Assembly: GCA_036006355.1 (NCBI GenBank)
Contig: DASYPT010000100.1
Location: forward strand, 5,724-69,723
DNA from: Pyrinomonadaceae bacterium
GTDB taxonomy: Bacteria > Acidobacteriota > Blastocatellia > Pyrinomonadales > Pyrinomonadaceae
Direction: 5' to 3'
DNA length: 64,000 nt
Of this stretch, positions 17,324 to 63,739 are shown piece by piece; within the stretch, counting starts at the first letter, position 1, and every line of letters starts with the position of its first letter. A program made the position numbers and the translations under genes. The notes beneath the pieces are model-generated. The model saw only the letters and a program-made list of their open reading frames with translations. It did no database searches and was not told the DNA's origin.

Positions 17324-17364
17324 GTTAGCTTCTCCTGCCCGTCGCAGTGCGAGCCGAAATAGAA

Positions 17365-17645: not shown

Positions 17646-17659
17646 ATTTGCCGATACAG

Positions 17660-20398: not shown

Positions 20399-20511
20399 GA
20401 AACCCACTGACCTCCGATGTTCCAACAAAGGGAAACAGGCTTCAGCGGGATTAAGGATGGGAACCCACAAGCTGCCTGAACACCTTTGCGCGAGTGTTGA
20501 GAGGCGGCAAG

Positions 20512-20616
20512 TGTCTGGGCAGGTCTCCTGGCTTAGAGCAAACTCTTCACAGTGGCGCGACCGCGCGGGAATCTCACCCGCTTCCCTATTCTCCCCAATC
20601 GACTGGGGCACCCAAA
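20512..20616 (-). promoter_or_regulatory. cobalamin riboswitch 1 (short form)
   Basis: Minus-strand RNA reads GGUGCCCCAGUCGAUUGGGGAGAAUAGGGAAGCGGGUGAGAUUCCCGCGCGGUCGCGCCACUGUGAAGAGUUUGCUCUAAGCCAGGAGACCUGCC. It has all the core blocks and a canonical B12 box. Confidence 0.88.
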
Positions 20617-20686
20617 CACAATTTGAAAAGAGCAACTGTAATGTGGCGGCGACACTAACACCTTAAAGTGGGGGTGTCAAACTTCG

Positions 20687-20850
20687 GAAAGGATGAAGGA
20701 TGAAGGCGGAAGGATGAAGGTTGAGCTTTGTACTTTGTACTGGTGCTTCGTACTTTGCGCTCCAGATTCCTCTTGCTCCCAAACTCAAAGCTCAAGGTAC
20801 AAAGTACAAAGCTCAACCTTCATCCTTCCGCCTTCATCCTTCATCCTTTC
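20687..20850. repeat. 164-bp palindrome (type I) with about 54-bp arms
   Basis: GAAAGGATGAAGGATGAAGGCGGAAGGATGAAGGTTGAGCTTTGTACTTTGTAC ... GTACAAAGTACAAAGCTCAACCTTCATCCTTCCGCCTTCATCCTTCATCCTTTC. Confidence 0.9.
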
Positions 20851-20919
20851 TTCGGTTTGCCTCCCCTTCCTGCGTCCAGTAAGATGCCGTTCTATTCAAC
20901 GCCTAACAGGACGAAATCA

Positions 20920-32806: not shown

Positions 32807-34114
32807 TCAGGCGGAAGCTTCGCCAAACGAGGCGTTTTCAGGCTGGGGAATCAGTGCGGCGATCTCTTCAACGATTTGTCGCGTGGAGTTTGGTATCGCA
32901 AGGCCGACGGTTGCCGCTCTTAACCGAGAATAATGCACTTCGTCTTCCAACATTCTTCGCACGGCAGGAACGACGTCTGAGGTTCGCCTCAACATCACCC
33001 CTGCGCCACGCTCGGCAATAAGATTTGCCGTGCCAGCTTCCTGGGGCATCGGTTCGGTCGTCACATCCGCGATAATCGGAACGCGACACGCCAGGGCTTC
33101 AAAGGTCGTCAGCCCTCCAAGTTTGGAGATCATAACGTTTGCCGCGCTCATCAGTTTTTCGATTTCGTCCGAATAGCCAATCACCTTAATAGGGAATGGG
33201 GCATCCAGTGCCAACGACTCAGCCTTGGCGCGCAAATCTTCATTTCGACCAGCCAGGAAAATCGCCTGGACATCCAATTCACCTCGGATAAGTTCCTTGA
33301 ATATCTGCGGGATGTTGCCACCTCCAGCCCAGCCGGCATTTACAAACACAGTAAACTTTTCCGGGTCCAACCCAAGGGCGGAACGTGCCGCTTTCGCAGC
33401 ATCTTCTCCCGGATAGGCAAACTTGGGATGAACAGGCATACCTGAAATCTTGATACGTTCAGGTGCAACGCCATAATCGATCAACTGACGACGCGCCTCA
33501 TCACTCGCCACCAGATATAGCGAGACAGCATCACAAGCCCAACCCTTCCAGAATCCGTAGCAAGGATCGGTTACAACCGAGATTAGCGGAACTCGATCGG
33601 TCAGGTTCAATTCCTTAAGCACACGACCGAAGAGGTGTTGTGTTAGCGGATGCACGCTGACGACGACATGAGGACACCAACGTTCAAATAGCCCCGCCAC
33701 ATAACCGATACATCGCTTATGAAAAAACTCCAGTGTTTCAGGTCGAACGTGGTTGACGCACCAGTAGAAGTATTTCATCCAGTGCTGGCGATTCGTCAGA
33801 ATCCAATTGTAGAGTCGAACAAGTTTGGCAGTGAGATGATGCGATTCTTCGATGGCCCGTACGACTCTAACTGCGACAGACTCACCCTCAAAAAACTTCT
33901 GCACTCCGGCAACAATTGCCGCCGCGGCTGAACGATGACCACCACCCGTATCCGAAGAAATAATCAAGATCTTCGGATTGCGGTGCGCCTTAGTGCTGGG
34001 ACCGCACGCGTCCTCGCCTGCCCGGTTAAAATCAAGCGTCTGAGTTGGCAAGACGGCAGGCGGGGACGCCTGCGGTCCCGGCACTAAGCCCTGTTGTTGT
34101 TCTGATGTACTCAT
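32807..34114 (-). CDS. glycosyltransferase family 28, MGDG-synthase-like diacylglycerol glycosyltransferase
   Basis: KILIISSDTGGGHRSAAAAI is the N-terminal signature of the MGDG-synthase/UgtP-type family, and a GT28 C-terminal domain follows. The start is uncertain: ATG 34114, TTG 34049 or TTG 33967. A family G repeat lies in the 5' part. Confidence 0.75.
   Translation of the reverse strand: MSTSEQQQGLVPGPQASPPAVLPTQTLDFNRAGEDACGPSTKAHRNPKILIISSDTGGGHRSAAAAIVAGVQKFFEGESVAVRVVRAIEESHHLTAKLVRLYNWILTNRQHWMKYFYWCVNHVRPETLEFFHKRCIGYVAGLFERWCPHVVVSVHPLTQHLFGRVLKELNLTDRVPLISVVTDPCYGFWKGWACDAVSLYLVASDEARRQLIDYGVAPERIKISGMPVHPKFAYPGEDAAKAARSALGLDPEKFTVFVNAGWAGGGNIPQIFKELIRGELDVQAIFLAGRNEDLRAKAESLALDAPFPIKVIGYSDEIEKLMSAANVMISKLGGLTTFEALACRVPIIADVTTEPMPQEAGTANLIAERGAGVMLRRTSDVVPAVRRMLEDEVHYSRLRAATVGLAIPNSTRQIVEEIAALIPQPENASFGEASA
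33993..34084. repeat. 92-bp palindrome, family G copy 2
   Basis: GTGCTGGGACCGCACGCGTCCTCGCCTGCC ... GGCAGGCGGGGACGCCTGCGGTCCCGGCAC. It has the same length and arm sequence class as 2999..3090. Confidence 0.85.
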
Positions 34115-34121
34115 TCCCGAT

Positions 34122-35288
34122 TTAGAATCCGGCGACTCGAACACCATCGGGCTCCGGATCAACTCGATCAATGCCCTTCCGAGCTTTCTTCATTTCTCTT
34201 TCAAGTTTTTTGATTTGGATCAAGTGACCGGGATTGAATGGCAGCGACGGATAATAACTGTTTGATTCATGTGTGCAGAAACAACCTGAGGCTGCTTTCT
34301 TGCGTCGTTCTTTCATTGCCGGAGACAGCCAAAGCTTCTGAAAATTCCAATCGAACTCACGCAGGTTGCCAATCGGCGCCAGGTTCTCGCATGAGGAGAC
34401 AGTGCCCTCGTCGTAGATAACGCCACCAGCGGTTCCCGCGTAACACTTCATCTGCGCGGTTTGAGTTTCCTGTGTCTTCGCAATCAAACCGTGCATGTAG
34501 ATATCGATCGCCGCCTTGAAGAAACCTGCCTTGCCACCGTAGTTGTTCTTAATGGCCGCATGACGGGAATCATCGTCGATCATTTGTGCCAGTTTCGCGT
34601 AACGAGAGTGGTCTATCTCTAATTCTTTTGGATCTGCTGACGGTGGTCGGATGTAGTTGAAATTAACTTTGTCTGGCTTCAAATCGTATTTCAGAAAGTC
34701 GTACCAGTCGAAGATCGTGTCCTGGTTTGAATTCATGAAGCAGGTACAGGTTTGCACATCCAACCGTGGAAAGTCATTCTTTATCGCCTGGAGCTGTCGA
34801 GCGGTGTCGATTGCGATGTCCCAGGAGCCGGGCTTCTGACGAATCTTTTCGTGCTCGCGCTTCGGGCCATCAATCCCAAGGGCGACCGTCACATTCAGAT
34901 TTGGACATTCCTGAAGAACTCGAGTTACGTCAGGAAAGATTCGTTTCTGAATTTGTCCATTGGACATTATGTAAATAGACTCGAGTTGATTATTACGGTA
35001 GAAGGCGCTCGCGATCTCGGGAAGATCTTTTCGCGTGAACGGTTCGCCCCCAGCTAAAATCAAGACACCGAGATTGCCACCTAATGTTTCAGATATGCGT
35101 TCGATCTCATGGGTCTTCATCTGAAGCTTCTTTCGCGGACGATCATCCAGCTCGTCCGTAAAGAAACAGTGGGTGCACCGCATGTCACAAACCGAGGTGA
35201 CGAGTATGTTGAGCAGCACTGGCGAGAACGGTTGGCCGATCGCCAGCTTTGCGTAACGCTTCAGTAATTCTTTCGTGGTGAAATCCAT
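34122..35288 (-). CDS. radical SAM protein with SPASM/twitch-like C-terminal Cys cluster
   Basis: CDMRCTHC is a CxxxCxxC motif, and GGEPF follows. The C-terminal part has CYAGTAGGVIYDEGTVSSCE...SGCFCTHE. Start set at ATG 35288 (GAGGAAG upstream). Confidence 0.8.
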   Translation of the reverse strand: MDFTTKELLKRYAKLAIGQPFSPVLLNILVTSVCDMRCTHCFFTDELDDRPRKKLQMKTHEIERISETLGGNLGVLILAGGEPFTRKDLPEIASAFYRNNQLESIYIMSNGQIQKRIFPDVTRVLQECPNLNVTVALGIDGPKREHEKIRQKPGSWDIAIDTARQLQAIKNDFPRLDVQTCTCFMNSNQDTIFDWYDFLKYDLKPDKVNFNYIRPPSADPKELEIDHSRYAKLAQMIDDDSRHAAIKNNYGGKAGFFKAAIDIYMHGLIAKTQETQTAQMKCYAGTAGGVIYDEGTVSSCENLAPIGNLREFDWNFQKLWLSPAMKERRKKAASGCFCTHESNSYYPSLPFNPGHLIQIKKLEREMKKARKGIDRVDPEPDGVRVAGF

Positions 35289-35393
35289 TTCTTCCTCAAC
35301 TTCTTTGCTCGCGCGCACAAAACCGCGAGAGTCTTACAGATAAGCTATTTAACTGAGCATTGTCAACGTGATGTTTTTGATGCGAGTTTAGGG

Positions 35394-35496
35394 AAGTGAG
35401 TGGGTTGTGGTTAGTGGTGGAATAGGTCGAATGGGTCTAATAGGTCGTATAGGTCCTATACACTCACTACTGACTACTGACCACCGACCACTAACC
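35394..35496. repeat. family E element copy 3 (core in opposite orientation, 4 units)
   Basis: Core is AATAGGTCG AATGGGTCT AATAGGTCGT ATAGGTCCTAT. Arms GGTTAGTGGTGG / CCACCGACCACTAACC, plus CAGTAGT-type repeats shared with copy 2. It overlaps the last 23 nt of 35474..37153. Confidence 0.75.
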
Positions 35497-37153
35497 GTCG
35501 GGCATCGCTTGTAACTCGTGTTGTACTCTCAGAGAACCGTGGGGCTTCAGCGACGATTACGTCCATAACTCGAAAAGCTCCACCTGACGGGACTTCAAAC
35601 TGGATGTCCAGATATCCACTTTCGCTCTCGACCACATCCGAAACTACTTCGCTGATGCGCTCTGGCTCGATTGTCCCCATCGACATCGAACCGCGTGCGG
35701 AGTCACCGATTCGCCAATTGACCAATCCTCGCGAAACACTAACACGCGCATAAAGTAAATACCGACGGTGAGCTTGTGCCTGGACTCTTTGCCACAAGCG
35801 GCCGCCGGCAAGGGCGGCCATCGCCTGCCCGCCAGATACCGTCATTGCCTCAACCGGGCCGGTAACACTCCAACCATCCGCCAACTGATTCGATCTACTC
35901 GTGAGCCGGAACGACGGATTGACTGCGAGGTTATCCGCTGTGAACAGTCCTAAGTCTTCCGCACGTTGATGCAAATAAGCGCAACCTTCGACAGTGCCAC
36001 TCGAAGATCGCACTCGGATTCCCTGCGAACGTTCGCGACGATCTCTTATAAACAGATCTCCATCAAGCAATTGAACGAATATGCCGGGAGCAATCTCCGA
36101 CCTTCGCTCAACAATCAGATTGCCTCCTGTGTCCAGACGCTGAATGTCTGAAGGATCGCTTGTATGAACCCAGTTCTTATCACTCACACTCAGCGGCTCC
36201 AATCTCTTGTCAGCAAAATAGAGCACTGCGCCTCCGGGCTTGTATTCGTAGGAGATGTGCCTGAAGTAAAGTCGTGGATCCATGTAGTAGTTACTGAGAT
36301 CGCGTTCAGTTTGCGGTTCGTGAGGTGCAAATGCGAGCTGCTTGCCTGACATCACAGCTTCGTGCAATGTGAGCGCGCCTGCTGGTTTATCCTCAACACG
36401 CCAGTAGCAATTGAATGTAGGATCCTGATAGATCCAACCGCCCCGATCCACGATCCAAACTTCAGCACCTGCGTGAGTGTCAACACCAAAACCACCACTT
36501 TGCACGGCTACGCTCAATCCAACTGTTCGGGCGACGAGGCCAACTGATTCACACAGTGCGACGTAAATATCGGCAAGATTTCCGCAGAGCACGGGATCGC
36601 CGGCCTTCATCTGTTGGTACGCTTCTCGTGGATGACGTGTCGCAAGACCCGGCATTGCGAGGTGATGTGTTTGACGACCAAGCCACGCTCGAATCTTATT
36701 TGCCTTGTCCCACGCTGAATCCGTTGCGGAAACAACTCCGTTCAATTCAGATCGAAGGAAGGCCGCGTCTTCCGGGCTCAACCTCTCGCGCGGTTCTATG
36801 CGACGCATGTCCTTTGGCAGGCCATCGATCTCGTCGCCCTGTCGATGGATCTGTAAGCGAGCCAGTTCCGCAGGATTGCCTTCTCGCGATGTAACCACGA
36901 CGGTCGTATCACCTTCCGGTACCTGAACTCGGAAATCCGCTACCTGGATCTTGGGCTCTACAACGATAGGACCAGGACGCCAATATGAAGAAACACCAAA
37001 GCCGCCGAGAAACGCGCCGACTATTCCTATCCCAATGAGCCATTTGGATGAAGACTGCTGGAGTGTGGCAGGACTTGCAGAAACTAAACGCAGTGTTCTC
37101 TCGGGTGGGATACCTGATCGGCTAGCGGGCTGCTCCGGGGTGAGCAGATTCAT
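35474..37153 (-). CDS. transglutaminase-like (Cys-His-Asp fold) protein with N-terminal TM helix
   Basis: CGNLADIYVALCESVGLVARTV...THAGAEVW...WIYQDPT fits the transglutaminase-core C/H/D spacing. The C-terminal region looks like a jelly-roll domain. Confidence 0.78.
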   Translation of the reverse strand: MNLLTPEQPASRSGIPPERTLRLVSASPATLQQSSSKWLIGIGIVGAFLGGFGVSSYWRPGPIVVEPKIQVADFRVQVPEGDTTVVVTSREGNPAELARLQIHRQGDEIDGLPKDMRRIEPRERLSPEDAAFLRSELNGVVSATDSAWDKANKIRAWLGRQTHHLAMPGLATRHPREAYQQMKAGDPVLCGNLADIYVALCESVGLVARTVGLSVAVQSGGFGVDTHAGAEVWIVDRGGWIYQDPTFNCYWRVEDKPAGALTLHEAVMSGKQLAFAPHEPQTERDLSNYYMDPRLYFRHISYEYKPGGAVLYFADKRLEPLSVSDKNWVHTSDPSDIQRLDTGGNLIVERRSEIAPGIFVQLLDGDLFIRDRRERSQGIRVRSSSGTVEGCAYLHQRAEDLGLFTADNLAVNPSFRLTSRSNQLADGWSVTGPVEAMTVSGGQAMAALAGGRLWQRVQAQAHRRYLLYARVSVSRGLVNWRIGDSARGSMSMGTIEPERISEVVSDVVESESGYLDIQFEVPSGGAFRVMDVIVAEAPRFSESTTRVTSDARRLVVGGQ

Positions 37154-37293: not shown

Positions 37294-37388
37294 AAAAAAG
37301 TCAGAAGCGAAACGCGGAAGCGTCGGGTTTGCAACCAACCAGATCATTGGATTGGTAGAACCCGACGCTACCGCGTTTCGCTTCTGAG
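37294..37388 (-). terminator. long-stem intrinsic terminator after the two-component operon
   Basis: Minus strand: CTCAGAAGCGAAACGCGGTAGCGTCGGGTT ... AACCCGACGCTTCCGCGTTTCGCTTCTGAC followed by TTTTTT. The 5' arm encodes the last residues (LRSETR*) of the regulator. Confidence 0.6.
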
Positions 37389-38729
37389 TTCTTTTTGGAT
37401 GCCCAAGGCGCGCATGCGTCGATACAAGTGGCTTCGGTCCACTCCCATCAATTCAGCAGCACGCGAAACATTACCGTCAGCTTCTTCCAACTTCCGCTGA
37501 ATGAACTCGCGGTGATAAGCCTCGGTCGCTTCCTTAAAGGAAGGAAAACGAAAAGAAACGGCAGGCGGTTCTTCTTTTCCGTGCGGTGGCAGATCTGACG
37601 CATCAACTTTCGTCCCAGGATGCATGATTACCACACGCTCGATCGTGTTTCGCAATTCACGCACGTTACCTGGCCACGAGTAGTTTTGTAACTCTTCAAG
37701 CGCTTCAGGCAAGAACTCCTTTTGCCGCTTGCCGTACGCCTTCGAGAAATGTTCATTGAAGTAAGCGACCAGTGCGGGCACATCCTCCAGGCGTTCACGC
37801 AACGGTGGCAGTTCGAAAGGAATGACATTCAATCTATAGAAAAGGTCCGCGCGAAAATTTCCTTGCTCAATTTCCATATCGAGTCGTTTATTTGTAGCGG
37901 CGATCAATCTGACGTCCACAGTAATCGAGGTTCCACTACCGACAGGTTCAAAGCGTTGCTCTTCGAGAACCCGCAGAACCTTCGCCTGGACCTTTGGACT
38001 CATGTCTCCCACTTCGTCCAAAAAGATCGTGGCGCCGTCTGCCAATTCAAACTTTCCTTTCTTTGCCGCAGTCGCTCCGGTAAACGCGCCCTTAACATGA
38101 CCAAAGAGCTCCGACTCGATTAACTCTTCAGGAATTGCCGCTGAGTTGACTTCAACAAACGGCGCAGCTGCACGCCTTGATTCCGAATGAATAGCATGGG
38201 CCACAAGCTCTTTTCCTGTACCCGACTCTCCGTAGATCAGGATTCGTCCATCCGTTGGCGCGACAACTGAGATCTGCTTTCGCAATGCACGCATCGCCAC
38301 TGACTCGCCGACCATCGTGTACTCCCGGGCGAGCGCCGCAGCCATGTCTGCATTGATTCGTTCCAGTCGTTGTTGTCGTAAAGCATTACGAACCGTCAGT
38401 ATTGTTTTCTCGATTGACAGAGGTTTCTCGATGAAATCGAAAGCGCCAAGTTTTGTGGCCCTGACAGCGGTCTCGACGTTTCCATGACCTGAAATAATGA
38501 CAACGGCGGCTTCCGATCCGAGAGCTCGAAGTTGTTTCAACGTTTCTAATCCATCGATCCCCGGTAACCAGACGTCGAGCAAAATACATCCGTACGCTCG
38601 TCGCCCCAACGCCTTCAAACAATCCTCCCCTGAAGGGACGGCATCGGCGACGAAGCCTTCATCTTCCATGACCGCACGCAACGTATCGCGAATGCCGCGT
38701 TCGTCATCAACTATGAGAATCGAATCCAT
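37368..38729 (-). CDS. sigma-54-dependent response regulator (NtrC family: REC-AAA+-Fis HTH)
   Basis: DVWLPGIDG receiver, GESGTGKE Walker A, the GAFTGA sigma-54 contact motif and a C-terminal HTH. Confidence 0.92.
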   Translation of the reverse strand: MDSILIVDDERGIRDTLRAVMEDEGFVADAVPSGEDCLKALGRRAYGCILLDVWLPGIDGLETLKQLRALGSEAAVVIISGHGNVETAVRATKLGAFDFIEKPLSIEKTILTVRNALRQQRLERINADMAAALAREYTMVGESVAMRALRKQISVVAPTDGRILIYGESGTGKELVAHAIHSESRRAAAPFVEVNSAAIPEELIESELFGHVKGAFTGATAAKKGKFELADGATIFLDEVGDMSPKVQAKVLRVLEEQRFEPVGSGTSITVDVRLIAATNKRLDMEIEQGNFRADLFYRLNVIPFELPPLRERLEDVPALVAYFNEHFSKAYGKRQKEFLPEALEELQNYSWPGNVRELRNTIERVVIMHPGTKVDASDLPPHGKEEPPAVSFRFPSFKEATEAYHREFIQRKLEEADGNVSRAAELMGVDRSHLYRRMRALGIQKELRSETR

Positions 38730-41070: not shown

Positions 41071-41188
41071 GTCCGATATGCTTCAGCTTTGTCGTGACGC
41101 AACCAACCAGGCCCCTCGGTTTACGAACAGAGCTGATTGCCTTGGGGGCCTGGTTGGTAGAGTCCCGACAAGCTAAAGCATATCGGAC
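41071..41188. repeat. family B terminal-inverted-repeat element copy 1 (118 bp)
   Basis: GTCCGATATGCTTCAGCTTTGTCGTGACGCAACCAACCAGGCCCC ... GGGGCCTGGTTGGTAGAGTCCCGACAAGCTAAAGCATATCGGAC. Confidence 0.9.
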
Positions 41189-41218: not shown

Positions 41219-42181
41219 ATGACCCTGCGCACCCCTTTCATTAACGACGTGGGCCGACTACGAAGCGGCTGGCGGATAGTAATTTTCATCGTTGTATTTC
41301 TGAGCGCTATCAAGATTTCAGATCTGATGGTGCTACGGATCAACTGGGGTGGCATTCCTCATGGCCATCAACTGTTAGACCTTTTCGCACGTATTTTTCT
41401 TTTGCTGTCATCATTAGTTGCGGGCTATTTGTGCTCACGCATCATCGAAGACCTTCCCTGGCGATCGCTTGGTCTAGCATTCACGACGCGCTGGTTTTAT
41501 GACTTGGTGGTCGGCTCTATCATAGGTTTCCTTTCCCTCTGTTTAGCCGTCGCAATTGCCGCCGCAGCAGGTGGCCTAAAGTTTACCTTCAGCACCGCTG
41601 ATGTCTTTTGGCCAACAATACGAGCTGTCGTTGGAACCGGCTTGGTCTTCATAATTGCCGCGCTTGCTGAAGAGGCAGTGTTCAGGGGTTATCCACTGCA
41701 GACTCTCTCGCGGGCAAGATTAGCGTGGCTCGGAGTTCTGCTCACGTCAGTGCCCTTTGCTTTGGCTCACTTCTGGAATCCAAACATTGTGCGCGGTGTG
41801 ACTTTTGCCAATACGGCGCTGGCGGGTGTCTGGCTCGCCGTCGCCTACCTGCGAACGCGCAATCTTTGGTTCCCGCTGGGCGTTCACTGGGGCTGGAATT
41901 GGGCACTCGGTTCGATTTTTGGTCTGCCAGTCAGTGGCCTGACATTGCTGTCTAATCCATTGATGTACGGAAAAGACTTCGGACCTAGATGGTTGACGGG
42001 TGGCAATTACGGGATCGAAGGTGGCGTTGCAGGAACGCTGGCAATTGTCGCGTCGATATTGTTCCTATGGCGAACGAAAATCATTTCGGCAGATCCGGAA
42101 TTGTTGAAGTTAACTTCCCAGGAAAACCCTGTCCGAGGTAATCAGCCACAGATAAAAACGGATGACACGGATCAGATTTGA
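41219..42181 (+). CDS. CPBP family intramembrane glutamic endopeptidase (CAAX protease-like)
   Basis: EEAVFRGY and FALAHFWN motifs, in a polytopic protein. Confidence 0.85.
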   Translation: MTLRTPFINDVGRLRSGWRIVIFIVVFLSAIKISDLMVLRINWGGIPHGHQLLDLFARIFLLLSSLVAGYLCSRIIEDLPWRSLGLAFTTRWFYDLVVGSIIGFLSLCLAVAIAAAAGGLKFTFSTADVFWPTIRAVVGTGLVFIIAALAEEAVFRGYPLQTLSRARLAWLGVLLTSVPFALAHFWNPNIVRGVTFANTALAGVWLAVAYLRTRNLWFPLGVHWGWNWALGSIFGLPVSGLTLLSNPLMYGKDFGPRWLTGGNYGIEGGVAGTLAIVASILFLWRTKIISADPELLKLTSQENPVRGNQPQIKTDDTDQI

Positions 42182-42292
42182 GCTTTGTCAATTGTCAATT
42201 TTCGATTTGCATAGGACCTATTCGACCTCTAGGACCTATGCTGCTTGCTGATTACTACTAGTCAAAATCGAAATTTGGCAATTGACAAAGCT
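42181..42292. repeat. family E element copy 4
   Basis: Arms AGCTTTGTCAATTGTCAATTTTCGATTTGC / GTCAAAATCGAAATTTGGCAATTGACAAAGCT. Core at 42211-42240 is ATAGGACCT ATTCGACCT CTAGGACCT. Confidence 0.88.
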
Positions 42293-42351
42293 CCAATCTG
42301 ATCTGTGTTAGTTCTGTTAACAATCTCCGTCCCTCTCCCGTCTTAATCGGT

Positions 42352-46138: not shown

Positions 46139-46436
46139 GTCCGATATGCGTCTGTCTTGTCGTGAGTACACCACCAGGCTTTAGCCGGTGGTACTTGAAC
46201 TTCATAACTACAAAGATGGGGAAAAACGTTGGGACACCACCGGGCTTTAGCCGGTGGTATTTCAATTTCATAGCTACTCCTTTGGAAGATCTGAGTGTAG
46301 CTCAGAAGTTGAAGTACCACCGGCTAAAGCCTGGTGGTGTCCCAACGTTTTTCCCCATCTTTGTAGTTGTGAAATTCAGGGACCACCGGCTAAAGCCCGG
46401 TGGTGTGAGGCACGACAAGACAGACGCATATCGGAC
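46139..46436. repeat. family B copy 3: 298-bp nested palindrome
   Basis: Ends GTCCGATATGCGTCTGTCTTGTCGTG / CACGACAAGACAGACGCATATCGGAC. The arms are about 140 bp and about 90% complementary. It carries four internal CACCACCRGGCTTTAGCCGGTGGTA mini-hairpins. Confidence 0.92.
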
Positions 46437-47589: not shown

Positions 47590-47646
47590 AAAGTTTCAGT
47601 GTGAGGCGAAGATAACAAACAGGTACGATAGAAACAAGCGAGCGCG

Positions 47647-47760
47647 CTTTGGAGTGCGACGGCCTGCCGTCGCTATATTACCAGCGCTAATCGCAGAATA
47701 TGGCACCGTATAAGTTAGTGTCTCTGTAACAAAGCGACGGCAGGCTGTCGCACTCCAAAG
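47647..47760. repeat. family C palindrome copy 1
   Basis: CTTTGGAGTGCGACGGCCTGCCGTCGCT ... AGCGACGGCAGGCTGTCGCACTCCAAAG. It ends 3 nt from the stop of 47764..48624. Confidence 0.9.
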
Positions 47761-47763
47761 CAA

Positions 47764-49856: not shown

Positions 49857-51059
49857 ATGGCGAAACGACAAGTTTATCTAGACCATAGCGCGACAACGCC
49901 TGTCGACGAGCGAGTCGCCGCCGCGATGAGTCGTAGCCTGGCCGAAACGTTTGGCAATGCCTCAAGTGTTCACACTTTTGGTCAGAAGGCTCGCTCGGCA
50001 GTTGACCGCGCACGACGGGAAGTGGCTGCTCTCATCGGTGCTCGTCAGAACGAAATTGTCTTTGTCTCAGGCGGAACCGAGGCAAATAATCTTGCCATCC
50101 GGGGTCTCTCCGAAGCCGCAGCGCAATATGGCCGGCATCTTGTTACTTCAGCTATCGAACACCCTTCGGTCCGCGGAGTGTGTGATCGATTGGAGAAAGA
50201 AGGTTGGGACGTAACACGCTTGCCGGTCTATGACAATGGCATCGTGAAGATTGACGATGTTCGTCAGGCTCTTCGTGCGGATACGGTCCTCGTTACCGCG
50301 ATGCTGGCCAACAATGAAATTGGCACGATTCAACCAGTCAAAGAAATCGGGCGCCTGATTAGAGAGCGTCGAAATTCTGGTCGTAAAAGTCTCTGGTTCC
50401 ATACAGACGCGGTCCAGGCTGCAGGCAGACTGGAGATTGACGTTGATGAGCTCGGCTGTGATCTTCTATCGCTTTCAGGTCACAAACTATACGCGCCCAA
50501 AGGAATCGGAGCTCTTTACGTCAGAAAAGGAGTCAGACTCGTAGAGCAAAATGTAGGTGGACATCAGGAACGTGAACGCCGAGGAGGTACCGAAAACGTT
50601 CCGGGCATCGTTGCTTTTGGAGAAGCTGCAAGGATCGCAGGTGAGGAATTCCAAAAGCGAAACGATCATGTGAAGTCTTTGCGTGATCGATTTGAAGCTG
50701 CCGTTGAGACCAGGATTAGCGAGATCGTTATCAATGGCGACCGCCATCAACGTCTTCCTCACCTGACGAACATCTCATTCAGGTTCATTGAAGGAGAAGG
50801 TTTGCTCATCAACCTGGATATGAATGGTATCGCTGTATCAACCGGTTCAGCGTGCTCCTCTGGAACTCTCGAACCATCACCCGTCATTAGAGCTCTGGGT
50901 CGAAATGATGAACTGGCGCGTGGATCAATTCGGTTTAGTTTCGGAAAAGACAATTCGGAAGCAGATGTTGACTATGTGGTCGAGGTTCTGGTTGAGGTAG
51001 TTGAACGACTTCGTGAGCTTTCTCCGCTTGGGAAAGAAGTCAGTACCACCTCGCGGTAG
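49857..51059 (+). CDS. cysteine desulfurase (NifS/IscS type)
   Basis: SLSGHKLYAPKGIG carries the PLP lysine and STGSACSSG carries the active-site Cys. Confidence 0.9.
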   Translation: MAKRQVYLDHSATTPVDERVAAAMSRSLAETFGNASSVHTFGQKARSAVDRARREVAALIGARQNEIVFVSGGTEANNLAIRGLSEAAAQYGRHLVTSAIEHPSVRGVCDRLEKEGWDVTRLPVYDNGIVKIDDVRQALRADTVLVTAMLANNEIGTIQPVKEIGRLIRERRNSGRKSLWFHTDAVQAAGRLEIDVDELGCDLLSLSGHKLYAPKGIGALYVRKGVRLVEQNVGGHQERERRGGTENVPGIVAFGEAARIAGEEFQKRNDHVKSLRDRFEAAVETRISEIVINGDRHQRLPHLTNISFRFIEGEGLLINLDMNGIAVSTGSACSSGTLEPSPVIRALGRNDELARGSIRFSFGKDNSEADVDYVVEVLVEVVERLRELSPLGKEVSTTSR

Positions 51060-51131
51060 CGGGTGGGTGCGAAGTTTTTTGGCAGCCAACTCTGAGCTTC
51101 GCACCCACCCGCTACCGCGAGGTGGTACTGA
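51039..51131. repeat. 93-bp perfect palindrome (type J), 36-bp arms
   Basis: GTCAGTACCACCTCGCGGTAGCGGGTGGGTGCGAAG ... CTTCGCACCCACCCGCTACCGCGAGGTGGTACTGAC. The left arm contains the last 6 codons and the stop of the desulfurase gene. Confidence 0.95.
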
Positions 51132-51171
51132 CTTCTTCCAACTAATTGAAGCAAAATTAGAACCACTTCAG

Positions 51172-51537
51172 TTGCCATACTCATTAACATTCAAAGATCA
51201 CCTGGCCCATCCACGGAATGTCGGCGAAATCCCAAACGCTTCTGTCATCGCTGAAGAAGTAAATCCTGTTTGCGGCGATCGACTCCGATTGTCGTTAATG
51301 ATTACTAACGGACGGATTGAGCTCGCTAAGTATCTGGCTTACGGCTGTCCTCCGACGCTGGTTATGGGGTCAGTTCTAACCGAATTGATTACTGGTAAGG
51401 CTGTTGACGAGGCGCTGGCGGTAACACGTTCAGACTTGATCGACCAGGTCGGTGGTTTACCAAGTCGCAAACACCACGCGGCTGCGCTCGCAATCGAAGC
51501 ACTCGCGAGCGCGGTCAAAAACTTTGGAGTGCGCTAG
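51172..51537 (+). CDS. IscU/NifU-N-terminal-like Fe-S scaffold protein (atypical)
   Basis: With a TTG start at 51172 the N-terminus is (M)PYSLTFKDHLAHPRNVGE, matching the IscU N-terminus. NPVCGD and YGCPP are present, but the third Cys position reads KHHAAALA. The track start at 51001 lies inside the upstream gene and repeat. Confidence 0.7.
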   Translation: MPYSLTFKDHLAHPRNVGEIPNASVIAEEVNPVCGDRLRLSLMITNGRIELAKYLAYGCPPTLVMGSVLTELITGKAVDEALAVTRSDLIDQVGGLPSRKHHAAALAIEALASAVKNFGVR

Positions 51538-51651
51538 CCTGCTAGCGCTTTGTTACAAGTGACGCTAACCAACCTGTCCTCTAACTAAACCCAAATCGTC
51601 GATTGACAAGTAGCCTGTGACAAAGCGACGGCAGGCCGTCGCACTCCAAAG
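51522..51651. repeat. family C palindrome copy 2
   Basis: CTTTGGAGTGCGCTAGCCTGCTAGCGCTTTGTTACA ... TGTGACAAAGCGACGGCAGGCCGTCGCACTCCAAAG. It fills the convergent gap. The left arm encodes NFGVR* of the scaffold gene, and the right end is 1 nt from the PBP stop. Confidence 0.9.
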
Positions 51652-51652
51652 A

Positions 51653-54367
51653 TCATGGCTGCGGTGTACCAACAACCCTCGGCCTGCTGGATGAATCCCC
51701 TGCCTTACCTCGGTGATACTCCGGCCCACAATACTTTTTCGGTTCCGTTCCCAACACGAAAGTCTTGGTTCTAATCACCGGACATGAATCACTCGCAAGC
51801 AATCCGGTTGTTGGATCAATATCCAGAGTAATCGTTCCTTCTAAATGGCCTTCGGGCACGGCGGTAACTGGTTTTCGAGGCAAGGGTGACGGTAACGGCG
51901 CTACAGTCGGTGTCACTTCTGGAGTTGCTTCTTCTGCGGGCGAGGCCGAGGGCTGTTCTTCTGGAGTCGCCTGCTCAGTCCCTTCAGGGGACTCATGATT
52001 GGGTCCAGTTCCGTTGATGAAATACTCAGTCCGCTTTTCGGTATCACCCGCGGCGCTCGGTTGTCCTGTCTCCGGATTAATTTCGATAGCTTCGACGCCC
52101 GCGGGCATTTGCCAATCGCCGGCCCACTCAGGGTGTTCATTTAAAGCGAACGACATGAAGTCGGACCAGATCGGCAACGCTGAATTCGCACCAGTCAAAC
52201 CCAGCTGCGAGCCATCATCGAAACCTACCCAAACCGCACAGACCAAATTCGGCGTATAACCAGCAAACCAACCGTCTCTAGACGTGCCTGTCTTACCAGC
52301 CAACACTCCCTTCAATCCACGAGCTCTGACTTTTGAAGCAGTGCCACGGTTGATTACGTCCTTCATGAACGAAGTCATAACGAATGCGACGTCCGGCCTA
52401 AGGACTTCACTGCGCTGAGGTGTTGGTGCAGCAACTGTCACTCCTTCGCCAGTCGTAATCCGGTTAATGGCAATCGGTGTTGTCCGTGAACCAAGGTTCG
52501 CAAAAGCAGTATATGCAGAGGCAATCTGCAACGGTGTTGCTTCGCTGGTCCCTAAGGCCATGGCAGGGTATGCACGCGGTGGTTTCGGTAAACCTGCTTT
52601 AGCAGCGAGGTTCATCACCCGGCCAATCGTCACTTCCATTGCCACGTCTACAGTAACGACGTTCAGACTGTGAACAATCGCGTCACGTAACGTAACCGGC
52701 TTATTCGAATAAGTGTCCCCAAAGTTACCCGGCGAATACTCCTGATTGTCGAAGGTGAAGGTCTTCGGTTCATCCATGAAGGTCGTTGCGGGAGTGATCA
52801 CTCGTGGCACCGGATCGTAGGCGGTGTTGAGCGCCGTTGCATAAACAAACGGCTTGAAGACTGAACCAGGTTGACGAAAGGCATCAGCCGCCCGATTAAG
52901 TTGACTCTTCGAATAGTCTCGTCCGCCGACCATCGCAACGATCTCGCCAGTCTTCGCATTCATCGCGACCAGAGCGGCTTGCAGCGTTCCGGGTTGAAAT
53001 CTCTTGGCCTCGATTTTGTCGAGCTCGACCAGTTGCCTGGTGAGGGCTGCGTACGCTGCGCGCTGCAAATCCATATCAATGGTCGTGTAGATCCGTAGAT
53101 GTTCGGCGCCGCCCGGGCCTGCAATCATGTCGCCCAATTGGTTCTGAACATAATCAGCAAAGTAAGGCGCATCAGAGACGTCTATGCGTCCTTTGGTAGG
53201 TGCAACCTGCAGCGGCGTTTCTTTAGCGATCTTTGCTTCGTCCGTGTTAATTGCCCCGGTCTCCAACATCGAGTCAAGCACCTGGTTACGTCTTGCAGTC
53301 GCCGTTTGCAGGTCCCGGTATGGGTTGTAGCGATTTGGACTCCGAATGAGCCCTGCCAGGAATGCCGCTTCCGGCAGAGTTAGATTTGTGACGTCTTTGT
53401 TGAAATACGCGCTTGCAGCTTCGCCCATCCCATTGATTGAGAACCCTGCTTGTTGGCCCATGTAGATCTGATTGCAATACAGTTCGAAGATCTTCTGCTT
53501 CGAGAGACGAGTCTCGAGGATGACCGACATGTAGGCTTCGGAGATTTTTCGCTTAGGAGAGTACTCAGGAGACAGCAAAAGGTTTTTAACTAACTGTTGC
53601 GTGATGCTGGAACCGCCCTGTCTCGCTAAAGGTGAATTTGGATCTATGTCGTAACGACGAACAGCGGCGCGGATGATTCCACGAATGTTCACTCCATAGT
53701 GTTCGAAGAAAGACCGGTCTTCAGTAACTGTAATCGCCTTCCGAAGATGTTCCGGGATGTCGTTGAAACCTACTACTTTCCTTTTTGCGCGCTCATGCCC
53801 GGTTACTGAGCTGATCAACTCTGGTTCAAGCCAAACCTGTTGAAATGAACCACGCCCATCGAGGTCGGACAAAGATGCGATTGCCTTGCCGGTCTTGGCG
53901 AACTGCACACGCACTCTTTGAAACTGCTGCTGACCGTCCACCGTCGAAGCACTACTTGGTTCAACGTCAACCGCAGTTCCATTGATCGTATAACGTCCTC
54001 GGGCATTATCGGCTTGCGCGCTCTTCTCAACATAACCAGCGCGCTTTAGAAATGCTATTACTTCGTCCTCAGAGATCGATTCGTTAACTCGAAGTTGCTT
54101 AGGCGCAGCGTAAATACCTGCGGAGCGAGTGTAGACTTCGCCTTTCAGAAGATTGTCAATGCGAGCTGAGAAGACAGTCCAATAGTAGACAAGGATTCCA
54201 ATTACAATTGCACTTGTAAAGACGACAGGAATAACTACATAGGGGCTTAGCAGTTTTCGCAACAGACGTCGCCAAAAACTCTGATGGGGTTGTATGTAGC
54301 TAACCATTCTTTGATCGCGCATTGTGCGCGACGGCGTCGGGTTATTTGGTGGATACCGGACTGGCAT
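51653..54367 (-). CDS. penicillin-binding protein 1A (bifunctional glycosyltransferase/transpeptidase)
   Basis: EDRSFFEHYGV and GGSSITQQL are GT51 motifs. SVFKP, SLN and KTGT are transpeptidase motifs. There is an N-terminal TM helix and a P/E/T-rich tail. Confidence 0.9.
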   Translation of the reverse strand: MPVRYPPNNPTPSRTMRDQRMVSYIQPHQSFWRRLLRKLLSPYVVIPVVFTSAIVIGILVYYWTVFSARIDNLLKGEVYTRSAGIYAAPKQLRVNESISEDEVIAFLKRAGYVEKSAQADNARGRYTINGTAVDVEPSSASTVDGQQQFQRVRVQFAKTGKAIASLSDLDGRGSFQQVWLEPELISSVTGHERAKRKVVGFNDIPEHLRKAITVTEDRSFFEHYGVNIRGIIRAAVRRYDIDPNSPLARQGGSSITQQLVKNLLLSPEYSPKRKISEAYMSVILETRLSKQKIFELYCNQIYMGQQAGFSINGMGEAASAYFNKDVTNLTLPEAAFLAGLIRSPNRYNPYRDLQTATARRNQVLDSMLETGAINTDEAKIAKETPLQVAPTKGRIDVSDAPYFADYVQNQLGDMIAGPGGAEHLRIYTTIDMDLQRAAYAALTRQLVELDKIEAKRFQPGTLQAALVAMNAKTGEIVAMVGGRDYSKSQLNRAADAFRQPGSVFKPFVYATALNTAYDPVPRVITPATTFMDEPKTFTFDNQEYSPGNFGDTYSNKPVTLRDAIVHSLNVVTVDVAMEVTIGRVMNLAAKAGLPKPPRAYPAMALGTSEATPLQIASAYTAFANLGSRTTPIAINRITTGEGVTVAAPTPQRSEVLRPDVAFVMTSFMKDVINRGTASKVRARGLKGVLAGKTGTSRDGWFAGYTPNLVCAVWVGFDDGSQLGLTGANSALPIWSDFMSFALNEHPEWAGDWQMPAGVEAIEINPETGQPSAAGDTEKRTEYFINGTGPNHESPEGTEQATPEEQPSASPAEEATPEVTPTVAPLPSPLPRKPVTAVPEGHLEGTITLDIDPTTGLLASDSCPVIRTKTFVLGTEPKKYCGPEYHRGKAGDSSSRPRVVGTPQP

Positions 54368-54506: not shown

Positions 54507-54597
54507 ATTGCCGATTTCCAATTGCCGATTGCCGATTAAATCGCTGCGAAGCCGATCAATCTGTTCAACCGGCAATCGACAATTGGAAATCGGCAAT
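54507..54597. repeat. family D palindrome copy 2
   Basis: ATTGCCGATTTCCAATTGCCGATTGCCGATT ... AACCGGCAATCGACAATTGGAAATCGGCAAT, in the divergent promoter region. Confidence 0.85.
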
Positions 54598-58963: not shown

Positions 58964-58973
58964 CCCGTCACAT

Positions 58974-59081
58974 GTCCGATATGCTTTAGCTTGTCGTGAC
59001 GCAACCAACCAAGCCCGAACGATTACGAGGTTCTCAGAAAATTGGGTTGGTTACGTCACGACAAGCTAAAGCATATTGGAC
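58974..59081. repeat. family B element copy 2 (108 bp)
   Basis: GTCCGATATGCTTTAGCTTGTCGTGACGCAACCAACCAAGCCC ... GGGTTGGTTACGTCACGACAAGCTAAAGCATATTGGAC. Confidence 0.9.
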
Positions 59082-59093
59082 ATTCATCTGCGC

Positions 59094-61043: not shown

Positions 61044-62126
61044 ATGCGGATTCTGATAGTAAAACTGGGAAGTATCGGCGACATCGTTCACACTCTGCCC
61101 GCGCTTGATGCGATTCGTAAAGCTCTTCCTCACGCAGAGATTTCCTGGGTTGTGGAACAATCAACTTCTGAAATTTTACGAGACAACCCGCTCATAGATC
61201 GTCTCATCGAAGTGGACACGAAGGCGCTGAGGCGCGGACTGATGTCTGGGGAGACGCTGCGGGCACCGCGCCAGCAGTTACGTCGGTTACGTGCCTCGGC
61301 CTTCGATGTAGCAATAGATTTTCAGGGACTGCTAAAGTCCGCTTCAATCGCGCGCCTCTCGGGCGCGCGTCGTGTTTTTGGGTATACGCGCGAAGGCCTC
61401 CGGGAACCAGCCAGTGCTTTGTTCCTATCAAAGCGAGTTCACGTACCCAAGCAAACCCACGTAATCTTCAAGGCTTTACAGCTCGTCCAGGGCGCTCTCG
61501 GCATCGCCGTTCCGAGCGATCCTGGCGAACTCAATTTCCCAATCGGCATTCCAGATCGTGATCAATTGGAGGCCTCAACAGAAATCGAGAGAATCAAATC
61601 TCCATACGCAATCCTGAATCCCGGCGGAGGCTGGCCAACGAAACTTTGGAGTCCCGAACGTTTTGGTCAACTTGCAGACGCTCTCTGGTCTCATTTCGGT
61701 TTGGAGTCGCTTATCACTCACGGTCCCGGCGAGGAACAACTAGCCCAGTCTGTGATCGATGCCTCGCGGGCAGGCAAAGCACGAACAGTCACCCTGTCGT
61801 TAAAAGGCTTCTTCGCCTTAGCACAACACGCAAAGATTTATGTAGGGGGAGATACCGGCCCGACGCATCTCGCTGTGGCCGCTAACACGCCGATTGTAGG
61901 ACTCTTTGGTCCAACGGAGTGGTGGCGCAATGGCAGCCCACGGCCTGCTGATATTTGCGTTGAGAGAACCGACATCGATTGTCGGGTCGATTGCCACCGT
62001 CGTTCGTGTTCCAAATGGATTTGTATGGATATTGAAGTAGAGCGAGTATTGAAGGCTGTGGAAACCAGGCTTAGCGATACTTTCTCTACGTCACCTCGGA
62101 GTGAGCAGGAGCAGACAAGATTGTAA
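61044..62126 (+). CDS. GT9 heptosyltransferase (WaaC-like)
   Basis: Contains MRILIVKLGSIGDIVHTLPAL and GGDTGPTHLAVAANTPIVGLFGPT. Confidence 0.8.
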   Translation: MRILIVKLGSIGDIVHTLPALDAIRKALPHAEISWVVEQSTSEILRDNPLIDRLIEVDTKALRRGLMSGETLRAPRQQLRRLRASAFDVAIDFQGLLKSASIARLSGARRVFGYTREGLREPASALFLSKRVHVPKQTHVIFKALQLVQGALGIAVPSDPGELNFPIGIPDRDQLEASTEIERIKSPYAILNPGGGWPTKLWSPERFGQLADALWSHFGLESLITHGPGEEQLAQSVIDASRAGKARTVTLSLKGFFALAQHAKIYVGGDTGPTHLAVAANTPIVGLFGPTEWWRNGSPRPADICVERTDIDCRVDCHRRSCSKWICMDIEVERVLKAVETRLSDTFSTSPRSEQEQTRL

Positions 62127-62158
62127 TAGGTCCTATTCGTCGTACAGATCCTATTATT
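62126..62158. repeat. family E core-only copy 5 (no arms)
   Basis: AATAGGTCCTATTCGTCGTACAGATCCTATTATT, which is three degenerate 9-mer units in the reverse orientation. Confidence 0.55.
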
Positions 62159-62725: not shown

Positions 62726-63561
62726 GTCGTAGAACGAGTTATTTTTTGGTTATCGTTTTAGGCGTGACGGTGAGTGTGTTGAGCCGGCAGAGTATCAATG
62801 CTCAGCAACCGATTGCTGCTACTACGAGGCCATTTGAACCGGTTGAGGAACTTCAATACGAAGCTGAGTTCAATCGATCTCTAATTCGTGGACTGAATAT
62901 AGCTGATTTCAAATTCCGCTCAGCCCGAACTCCGAATGTCGAAAATGGCAACGGCTCAAAGCCCGTCTCATTAGTCTTTCGCGCCGATGTTGCGAGCAAA
63001 GGTTTTTTCACTCGTCTCTTCAACCTGAAGGTTCATGAACAAGTAGAATCGACAGTAGACGCAGAAACGCTCACCTTGCAAAGAACAACCATTCGTGATG
63101 AACAAGGCAAACGAGTTCGCGAGACCGAAACCACTTACGATCGGGCCAAAGGGGAAATGGCCTGGACCCGGCGTGATCCCAATAATCCGACCGCCGAACC
63201 TAACAAAGCACTCGTGGATTTTTCGGGTCAGCTCCAGGACATCTTGTCAGCGATCTATTTCATTCGAACTCAACCATTGCACCTGGGAAAGAGCTTCGAA
63301 ATCTTCATCGGAGATGGCGGCAAAGTTTACCGGGTACCCGTTCGAGTTCTTGAGAAGAAGAAGTTGAAGACCGTACTGGGAAGCGTCAATGCGTTTCGAG
63401 TTGAACCAGATCTTTTCGGACCTGATAGTCTGATCGATCATGAAAAGGGTCAGTTCACATTGTGGATCACGGACGACAGTCGCCACATTCCCGTCACCGC
63501 CAAAATCAAGACCGATTACGGAACGTTCGATATTAAATTGAAGCGCGCCGTTTACAATTGA
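62722..63561 (+). CDS. exported protein, DUF3108-like
   Basis: ATG 62722 overlaps the upstream stop (ATGA). It has a signal peptide, EELQYEAEF near the N-terminus and a C-terminal TDYGTFDIKLKR. The family call is from memory. Confidence 0.5.
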   Translation: MSRRTSYFLVIVLGVTVSVLSRQSINAQQPIAATTRPFEPVEELQYEAEFNRSLIRGLNIADFKFRSARTPNVENGNGSKPVSLVFRADVASKGFFTRLFNLKVHEQVESTVDAETLTLQRTTIRDEQGKRVRETETTYDRAKGEMAWTRRDPNNPTAEPNKALVDFSGQLQDILSAIYFIRTQPLHLGKSFEIFIGDGGKVYRVPVRVLEKKKLKTVLGSVNAFRVEPDLFGPDSLIDHEKGQFTLWITDDSRHIPVTAKIKTDYGTFDIKLKRAVYN

Positions 63562-63562
63562 T

Positions 63563-63734
63563 GTCCGACGAACTTTAGTTTGTCGTGGCCCCAAAGAGAT
63601 TAGCCACAAATTCCACAAATGACGCAAACAGGAATTGTGATGAAGGCTCGAACGTCCTAAGTTCTGATCTGTTTGATTTGTGTAAATTTGTGGCTAATCT
63701 CTTTGGGACCACGACAAACTAAAGTTCGTCGGAC
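63563..63734. repeat. family A copy 4, complete composite element (172 bp)
   Basis: Outer ends GTCCGACGAACTTTAGTTTGTCGTGG / CCACGACAAACTAAAGTTCGTCGGAC. The inner inverted pair is CCAAAGAGATTAGCCACAAATT.. / ..AAATTTGTGGCTAATCTCTTTGG. It starts 1 nt after a stop and ends 5 nt before the next ATG. Confidence 0.93.
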
Positions 63735-63739
63735 ATTCT

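Follow-up and report, generated by a model that had tools for sequence, protein, structure and literature searches.

The 64-kb stretch of the Pyrinomonadaceae contig DASYPT010000100.1 analyzed here (the window) contains five copies of a short repeat, family E, in which an array of tandem 9-mers is enclosed, in some copies, by inverted arms. The question raised by one of them, site 4 beside the Rce1-like protease gene, is whether such a copy is a single element with a conserved core and variable arms, as an original prediction from the sequence had proposed, or whether core and arms have separate origins. The comparisons below show a module of about 29 bp that is independent of the arms, turns over between close relatives and has counterparts in distant phyla. 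Tentatively, we take family E to be a very small non-autonomous mobile DNA repeat that is scattered in intergenic DNA and is akin to the small dispersed repeats (SDRs) of Nostoc.

The 29-bp module

All five predicted sites are present in the window at the predicted positions, with site 3 in reverse orientation and of four units and site 5 consisting of a core only (Table 1). The consensus first given for the 9-mer, ATWNGACCT, has to be redrawn: the conserved part is instead the heptamer GACCTAT, which is followed by two free bases. The module is approximately 29 bp long (27–29 nt) and has the form ATAGGACCTAT-NNGACCT-ATNGGACCTAT, i.e. three GACCTAT heptamers with two free bases after each. In 47 Blastocatellia copies, among the matches listed from the scan described below, the core starts with ATAGG and ends with CCTAT; its ends are sharp, the flanks are wholly unrelated and there are usually exactly three units. 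The free dinucleotide is of the type xG in the middle unit of 6 and in the third unit of 20 of the 26 strict three-unit copies (Fisher p = 0.0002). Because this bias differs between the middle and the third unit, the module is made up of two palindromic 11-mers (ATAGGWCCTAT) around a non-palindromic 7-mer and is not a plain slippage array. In a single-strand fold the outer units pair, with an A-A mismatch. With its pairing outer 11-mers and five intergenic copies in 64 kb, the module fits a short (20–40 nt), imperfect, extragenic and high-copy palindrome.

The sequence GGWCC, which had been considered as a possible methylation site, is present in only 59% of the units and is ruled out as a conserved feature; the G needed for a complete site is at one of the two free positions, which makes methylation a weak proposal.

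The array is strongly over-represented in the window. There are 13 matches to ATAGGACCTAT with at most one mismatch (0.33 expected), a number reached in 0 of 100 shuffles, and nine matches to the 18-nt two-unit pattern (0.28 expected). Heptamer pairs spaced 9 nt apart number nine against 0.07, and triples with the same spacing number five against 0.0, in 100 first-order Markov simulations. The numbers of exact heptamers per copy at sites 1 to 5 (3/3, 2/3, 3/4, 1/3 and 1/3) form a decay series that runs from the intact site 1 to the nearly erased site 5. Taken alone, site 5 is weak, i.e. one exact 11-mer and the 9-nt register. The core of site 2 is identical in two contigs of the same species (L147 and L148).

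Arms of the window copies

The arms are complementary over 44 nt at site 4 (91%), 48 nt at site 1 (85%) and 24 nt at site 2 (100%). Folded as single-stranded DNA, these three sites give z-scores of −13.9, −10.6 and −8.9, respectively, relative to shuffled sequences. Site 3 folds no better than its shuffles (z −0.2), its arms therefore having decayed, and site 5 is without arms. The arms contain arrays with a period of 7 (positions 5763–5789, 5860–5892, 13994–14017, 14056–14085, 35461–35496 and 42185–42200) and the core has a period of 9. Sites 2 and 3 share GTCAGTA-type heptamers; otherwise the arms differ from copy to copy, as the original prediction had it.

Sites 2 and 3, together with copies in other Pyrinomonadaceae genomes, form an E subfamily that has its own GGTCAGT/ACTGACC arms. 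Such flanks are found in 12 listed copies from several Pyrinomonadaceae genomes (11 distinct copies, as window site 2 is also listed as L147), and a remnant of them, ctgattactactagtc, persists on one side of site 4. The asymmetric spacer of site 4 probably derives from an ACTGACC-type arm of the E subfamily itself, now decayed. To this extent the arms are homologous and merely diverged, which is the outcome that the original prediction had named as counting against it. Compensatory changes, which would be expected if the arms only needed to pair, were looked for in orthologous arms, and the two hairpin pairs show one-sided mismatches only. The sequence GAGCTTTGT was considered as a family-wide terminal repeat and rejected; it forms only two clear pairs in the window.

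The left arm of site 4 consists of nested layers, i.e. GGATCAGATT, then GAGCTTTGTC, then D-like ATTGTCA/ATTTTCG heptamers. The GGATCAGATT sequence is a gene-end hairpin that is present in empty relatives as well, and GAGCTTTGTC is common to the alternative MITE (miniature inverted-repeat transposable element) that occupies this site in other relatives.

Occupancy of the sites in related genomes

Syntenic contigs of relatives were collected by way of the flanking proteins. Percentages given for relatives are amino acid identities of the flanking query protein, which was the aldehyde dehydrogenase for sites 1 and 2 and for the aconitase/aldehyde dehydrogenase junction, and the Rce1-like protein for site 4.

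At site 1, L159 (98%) has the same CATTTTC-heptamer hairpin with a different palindromic element (ACGACAGGCTGTTAGCCTGTCGT...) at its center. L152 (97%) has no CATTTTC hairpin; its core there is naked and equals the window core in reverse complement apart from one substitution. The 91–95% relatives have other hairpin families or nothing at this position. At site 2, L152 has an oppositely oriented core flanked by degenerate GTCAnnn arms, L162 has kept the right arm alone with the core absent, and L153 and L156 show no trace. An (AGTCCTA)3 array in L162 occupies the position of the E left arm of the window and resembles a 7-nt version of the 9-mer. No arrays were found in the 4–21 kb of syntenic region read from each of the 91–95% relatives; the metagenome-assembled genome (MAG) that holds L157, whose syntenic region is arrayless, carries an array elsewhere (L046).

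The aconitase/aldehyde dehydrogenase junction gives a further example. In the window it contains a D-type hairpin (ATTGCCG heptamers) with an unrelated center. L152 has the same D hairpin with a nested E remnant, including that remnant's own GGTCnGT/ACTGACC arms, and L159 has a naked three-unit core without a hairpin.

Site 4 matches the window in two 99% relatives (L001 and L116). Other relatives of 87–99% (L117–L119 and L124) have instead a TGTCCGACGAAC-type MITE, whose outer bases are likewise GAGCTTTGTC/GACAAAGCTC; further insertions are nested in L120 and L121, and the 75–79% relatives have the small gene-end hairpin only. The site 4 core is missing here from 75–95% relatives. An armed E element is present in L119 and L120 upstream of the Rce1-like gene, at a position that another MITE takes up in the window; L127 has there a hairpin with GGTCAGT arms and no core. 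GGTCAGT hairpins with other centers are present in L127 and L136.

Naked cores, without arms, are found in L152, L159 and L089. Because the same CATTTTC and D hairpins hold different centers, and because naked cores exist, the arms are not part of the element. The arms of sites 1 and 4 are separate host palindromes whose tips are hotspots for the exchange of alternative centers, the E core being one recurrent center. Thus the "inverted design" of the original prediction can be kept for the core, which is the conserved and defining unit, but not as regards the arms, which were taken to be part of the element and constrained by pairing alone. The module is one of several interchangeable centers, either naked or within its own GGTCAGT-type heptamer palindrome, and the host palindromes are fast-evolving structures, built of tandem heptamers, that gather nested insertions at their tips in this lineage.

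The same radical SAM gene has an upstream array both in the window (34122–35318, minus strand) and in L089 (2844–4010); the two arrays agree in orientation and differ in their distance from the gene. L089 is from a Blastocatellia MAG with about 75% nucleotide identity to the window, and its array has three units. In L020 (2530–3699), from another Acidobacteriota MAG, arrays likewise flank a radical SAM gene. The transglutaminase-like gene beside site 3 (35474–37153, minus strand) is absent in the syntenic L089, where the flanking genes are 72 nt apart; this is a gene-level insertion or deletion adjoining the repeat.

Distribution in other phyla

An exact-pattern scan, with 21 bases specified, was made over 185,579 species genomes (one genome per species). 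It matched more than 105 loci, where about 0.3 are expected in random sequence of that size. Matches are from Acidobacteriota (Blastocatellia, Thermoanaerobaculia and others) and from Planctomycetota, Verrucomicrobiota, Bacteroidota, Lentisphaerota, Sumerlaeota, Desulfobacterota, Chlorobiota, Cloacimonadota, Armatimonadota and Hydrogenedentota, i.e. about a dozen phyla, with a genome GC content of 42% to 66%. Several non-Blastocatellia MAGs contribute more than one matched locus or more than one array per locus. The module, high-copy in this Pyrinomonadaceae genome, is a member of a GACCTAT-NN array family that spans these phyla.

The figures that follow refer to the matches listed. The unforced N of GACCTNT is A in 118 of 118, and the pattern is followed by TAT in 93 and by NAT in 111 of these 118 matches (background 0.7%). 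The arrays have three units in Blastocatellia and three to eight in Thermoanaerobaculia, where the two arms of a hairpin are often arrays themselves; those of Prevotella reach 13 units. Complementary flanks accompany only 20 of 131 cross-phylum arrays, and 106 (about 80%) have none. Orientation with respect to the flanking genes is unbiased, both overall (28 vs 27) and within Blastocatellia (13 vs 14). By distances read off the listing, arrays are nearer to upstream stop codons (median about 16–20 nt) than to downstream starts (about 60 nt).

No gene recurs beside the arrays: clustering of 3,251 open reading frames (ORFs) from the 105 loci gave no family present in more than nine loci. ORFs between paired arrays encode radical SAM, nitroreductase, Ogg, aspartyl protease, PIN and release-factor-like proteins, and no transposase is among them. 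Rfam by E-value, applied to eight array-bearing loci, gave only weak hairpin-type microRNA matches far below the gathering score. Literature searches with the repeat sequence as a string found no paper in the collection searched. A plasmid BLAST search gave no match to the array, an absence that the low-complexity filter may explain.

Most viral matches are coding repeats for collagen-like Gly-Pro-Ile/Gly-Pro-Met (GPI/GPM) sequences and few are non-coding. These coding repeats, in giant-virus and phage contigs (L108, L112–L115 and many of L164–L215), mimic the pattern GGACCTATNGGACCTAT, so that collagen-like genes are false positives for any pattern scan of the GACCTAT-NN motif. The window copies do not have such a Gly-X-Y reading, being intergenic and including units with TTGACC, TCGACC and ACGACC. 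A phage origin of the arrays was considered and is ruled out, as the non-coding viral matches are few. The phage-like contig IMGVR_UViG_3300035660_000048 (L109, L110 and L200) has a tail tube gene and a GC content of 62%. At positions 1455–5657 of L109, non-coding GACCTAT-type arrays occupy six consecutive gene junctions in one orientation; one reversed array is found further on.

Proposed mobility and alternative explanations

Mobility is suggested by presence/absence patterns, because sites are filled, empty or alternatively filled among relatives of 97–99%, and relatives of 95% or less lack these copies. The module would be copied into intergenic DNA, landing near the ends of genes and also, in the present lineage, in the tips of palindromes, and would turn over rapidly, being gained, lost, swapped and flipped while a housekeeping protein diverges by 1–5%. 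Copying may be carried out by a trans-acting enzyme that recognizes the heptamers, or it may be break-induced copying between palindromes that share low-complexity arms; the second would explain both the swapping of centers and the flips of orientation, because either donor arm can pair. As we picture the process, a trans-acting factor that reads heptamers at a 9-bp spacing would propagate the module, insertion would favor gene ends and palindrome tips, and flips would come about when inverted arms recombine or when the template is switched between them.

Several observations weigh against a mobile repeat. Among the relatives there is no clean filled/empty pair with an exact junction, the intergenic DNA being too diverged. 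No direct repeat of the kind left by target-site duplication is visible around the cores or the armed copies, with no exact empty site for comparison, and no candidate transposase was seen near the 105 loci or between paired arrays, the search having covered these loci. The scan is partly circular in that the pattern itself forced 21 bases. All 105 genome matches listed (L002–L106) are MAGs, with no isolate among them, which may reflect the phyla involved or the scan order. Adjacent pairing stems of at least 5 bp are only weakly enriched (9.3% vs 4.7%); therefore tip-targeting is not general, and a general targeting of hairpin tips is ruled out. A motif in which 7 of 9 positions are kept from phylum to phylum is out of the ordinary for a selfish repeat, such repeats being normally confined to a lineage, and fits a host function better. 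The one-orientation junction arrays of L109 look functional, and the radical SAM array shared with L089, which may be a coincidence or a conserved site, would point the same way if conserved.

These observations lead to the alternative that family E is a host-selected array, similar to iterons or operators, for a conserved DNA-binding protein. It would have heptamer half-sites, a 2-bp spacer and cooperative binding to three or more units, and the copies would persist through a role in the cell, e.g. in nucleoid organization, transcription blocking or recombination. Each unit has seven fixed and two free positions in all phyla, the outer units of the Blastocatellia module are palindromic 11-mers 18 bp apart, and both the six phage junctions and the radical SAM gene fit such a role. 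However, array neighborhoods have no gene family in common, orientation is unbiased and the distance to gene starts is not fixed. With respect to iterons in particular, no replication initiator or origin is found among the neighbors of the window sites, and the copies are dispersed. Presence, orientation and free bases differ even among 97–99% relatives, the sites lack arrays once identity is at or below 95%, sites 2 and 5 show that copies decay, and hundreds of such sites per genome would be implied. We consider a host array unlikely, but these objections leave room for a bound factor, which a mobile element needs as well. The fixed 7 + 2 grammar across phyla argues that some protein would read the heptamers; because such a protein could serve either the element or the host, protein binding keeps substantial weight.

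An ordinary decaying MITE-like palindrome of the form (GGTCAGT)n-core-(ACTGACC)n is less probable again. The arms of sites 1 and 4 would then be elements that it entered, and naked cores would be remnants that have lost their arms. The 12 listed copies with GGTCAGT/ACTGACC flanks, the one-sided remnant at site 4, the armed E remnant nested in the D hairpin of L152 and the coreless right arm of L162 all fit this description. It does not account for the lack of a terminal inverted repeat of set length and of a visible target-site duplication, for the armless state of about 80% of the listed cross-phylum arrays and of most Blastocatellia copies, or for GGTCAGT hairpins with other centers (L127 and L136). 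In addition, the core grammar is found in phyla without these arms, or with the arrays themselves as arms (Thermoanaerobaculia). A role at the RNA level, as a terminator or mRNA-stabilizing hairpin, a small RNA, or a sponge for an RNA-binding protein with repeated GGA/GACCUAU motifs, is very unlikely. Arrays are mostly located just past stop codons, three window copies fold into very stable hairpins, and the short tandemly repeated repetitive (STRR) hairpins of cyanobacteria have been proposed to stabilize transcripts (PMC2670836). Both orientations are nevertheless equally frequent relative to flanking genes, most arrays are without a stem, no Rfam family matches, and a stem function would lie with the host hairpins and not with the core. 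The least credible explanation is that the cross-phylum matches are unrelated, a mixture of slippage 9-mers and collagen-like coding repeats in which only the Pyrinomonadaceae family is real. Many viral matches are indeed collagen-like coding repeats, and all listed genome matches are from MAGs. Against it, bacterial arrays in all phyla vary the free bases between units while the heptamer is fixed, which slippage does not yield; unforced positions are 79–100% conserved; NN is often not xG, which excludes a Gly-X-Y reading; and several non-Blastocatellia MAGs have multiple loci or arrays.

Comparison with known repeats

Among described repeats, the small mobile repeat proposed here would seem to work most like the Nostoc SDRs, at most as an analogue, the host being one of the Pyrinomonadaceae. 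Elhai and co-workers reportedly described in 2008 (Genome Res 18:1484) the families SDR4, SDR5 and SDR6 of Nostoc punctiforme and its relatives, with a length of 21–27 nt and mobility recognized by comparison of relatives. Nostoc SDRs are very small, mobile and enter palindromic sequences (PMC4390886, PMC5861425, PMC3116915), and SDR5 inserts within the HIP1 palindrome (PMC4390886, PMC5861425). Family E and the SDRs have in common a tiny size (21–27 vs 27–29 nt), a high copy number, a mostly intergenic and non-coding location, the lack of an identifiable transposase, mobility deduced from relatives, insertion in palindromes and a genome rich in heptamer-repeat hairpins. They differ in host phylum; SDRs are reported to be absent from organisms other than Nostocaceae (PMC5861425). 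Family E is distinct in its internally tandem 9-mers and in its occurrence in many phyla, and the likeness is one of description.

Like repetitive extragenic palindromic (REP) elements and the related BIME and REPIN, family E is a short imperfect palindrome with hundreds of copies, extragenic, mostly at the 3′ ends of genes and in both orientations. As with REP and BIME, it combines with different motifs into mosaics and is itself a place of insertion for other elements. REP elements have a conserved unpaired GTAG/CGTC tetranucleotide at one end (PMC3733652). E copies do not have this tag; they start with ATAG, which is itself in the stem, and GTAG occurs only in L037. No RAYT gene was seen near the copies in the window and the 8-kb loci, nor among recurrent neighbors. 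REP sequences are also lineage-specific and without an internal 9-nt tandem structure, whereas the E heptamer is common across phyla.

Bacterial MITEs (Nezha, Correia, ERIC and Chunjie) are non-autonomous, intergenic and hairpin-forming, and show filled and empty sites between relatives (PMC3184786). The remaining palindromic families of the window have the look of true MITEs and use insertion spots in common with family E. MITEs are defined by terminal inverted repeats, target-site duplications and a related insertion sequence; none of these was found for family E, in which the conserved part is central and 29 bp long. As for terminal repeats, the E arms differ between copies, are missing in most, and at site 1 hold another element in L159.

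STRR sequences are tandem 7-bp repeats that form intergenic hairpins in filamentous cyanobacteria (PMC2670836). The arms of family E, though not its core, are likewise tandem 7-bp intergenic hairpins; thus the comparison describes the arms and not the 9-mers, and the organism here is a soil acidobacterium. We know of no report of STRR-like hairpins in Acidobacteriota. Hairpins with tandem-heptamer arms and differing centers are also found at window positions 7465–7571, 54507–54597, 20671–20866 and 10591–10665 (ATTGCCG, AAGGATG and CTTTGTA heptamers) and, among relatives, in L049, L066, L070 and L162 (TTAAGAT, AGTCCTA and GGGCTTT). Such varied hairpins constitute an STRR-like architecture outside the cyanobacteria.

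Arrays of half-sites read by one protein include the 7-2-7 heptamers of NarL (TACYYMT), the met-boxes of MetJ, the heptads of omega protein and the stoperators of mycobacteriophages. In geometry these resemble family E, with a heptamer, a 2-bp spacer and three or more repeats, and GACCTAT is one base removed from the NarL heptamer consensus. The one-orientation junction arrays of L109 resemble the stoperators or start-associated sequences of mycobacteriophages. Such half-site systems have a few to tens of promoter-tied sites, in contrast to the hundreds of orientation-free sites of family E that turn over between strains.

Features of the window

Table 1. Positions of family E cores and their flanking structures in the 64-kb window.
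Feature	Position	Strand	Description
Site 1 core	5804–5832	+	ATAGGACCT ATTTGACCT ATAGGACCT AT; intact
Site 1 host hairpin	5742–5899	.	CATTTTC-heptamer arms, 5742–5789 and 5852–5899
Site 2 core	14026–14054	+	ATAGGACCT GTGGAACCT ATTCGACCT AT; degenerate
Site 2 E-subfamily arms	13994–14085	.	GTCAGTA/TACTGAC heptamers, 13994–14017 and 14062–14085
Site 3 core	35422–35459	-	Four units, ATAGGACCT ATACGACCT ATTAGACCC ATTCGACCT AT
Site 3 flanks	around 35422–35459		GGTnAGT-type arms, decayed
Site 4 core	42211–42239	+	ATAGGACCT ATTCGACCT CTAGGACCT AT; three units, one substitution
Site 4 host palindrome, left arm	42165–42208	+	91% complementary, z −13.9
Site 4 asymmetric spacer GCTGCTTGCTGATTACTACTAGTCA	42240–42264	+	By-eye match to right flanks of GGTCAGT/ACTGACC-armed E copies
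Site 4 host palindrome, right arm	42265–42308	+	91% complementary, z −13.9
Site 5 core	62126–62154	-	ATAGGTCCT ATTCGTCGT ACAGATCCT AT; strongly decayed, no arms; begins at stop codon of GT9 gene

All five cores are located between ORFs. The adjoining genes encode an aldehyde dehydrogenase, GatB, a radical SAM protein, an Rce1-like protease together with an ECF sigma factor, and a GT9 glycosyltransferase, i.e. unrelated housekeeping genes. A sigma-54 activator is encoded just upstream of the gene beside site 4. The close homologues of the aldehyde dehydrogenase are from Pyrinomonadaceae (Acidobacteriota). The window has a GC content of 51% and only four HIP1 sites. A cyanobacterial origin, which the heptamer repeats might suggest, was rejected on these two figures, the nearby sigma-54 activators and the Pyrinomonadaceae homologues. 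No relation is evident between core orientation and GC skew within the window.

Palindromic elements are the main constituent of the intergenic DNA in this genome. A MITE-like palindromic family with the ends (A)TGTCCGAYRWRCTTTAGYTTGTCGTG is found at 17458–17555, 41089–41171, 58972–59083 and 63561–63736; in relatives this family fills intergenic spots held by family E in the window, and vice versa. There are at least four further palindromic families (2999–3090 and 33989–34088; 47646–47761 and 51510–51663; 46168–46406; 51034–51137; 37294–37394), which include a GC-rich GGGACCGCAGGCGTCCCCGCCTGCC type, a GCTTTGGAGTGCGACGGCCTGCCGTCGC type, one whose arms measure 110 nt and one whose 41-nt arms are perfect. 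Rfam 15 at the gathering score gave in the window only two cobalamin riboswitches (RF00174, 52 and 85 bits), and none on the arrays. The riboswitches are on the minus strand at 17353–17662 and 20501–20630, upstream of a TonB-dependent receptor and of another minus-strand gene (19469–20635).

Significance

Conservation across phyla is the surprising part of family E. Dispersed extragenic repeats such as REP, MITE and SDR are as a rule confined to one genus or family, and here a grammar of a heptamer plus two bases is found at high copy in very distant phyla. This points to an undescribed and widely shared mechanism or factor that acts on intergenic DNA. A bolder form of the proposal, which we regard as possible but doubtful, is that GACCTAT-NN arrays are the cognate sites of one widespread trans-acting protein, either a recombinase/transposase or a chromosome-bound factor. 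They would then be part of a pan-bacterial extragenic-repeat system in at least a dozen phyla and some phages, and the Pyrinomonadaceae form would be reduced to a 29-bp two-palindrome module that colonizes palindrome tips. A concrete oligonucleotide, (GACCTATNN)3, is available to fish for the binding factor.

For repeat annotation, the mimicry of the array pattern by collagen-like genes is of practical relevance. In soil metagenomes, both strain-level variation and assembly breaks are concentrated at the arrays and hairpins. In the acidobacterial lineage itself, the data show the combination of STRR hairpins and small repeats that was previously described only in heterocystous cyanobacteria, and intergenic palindromes here grow through nested replacement at their tips.

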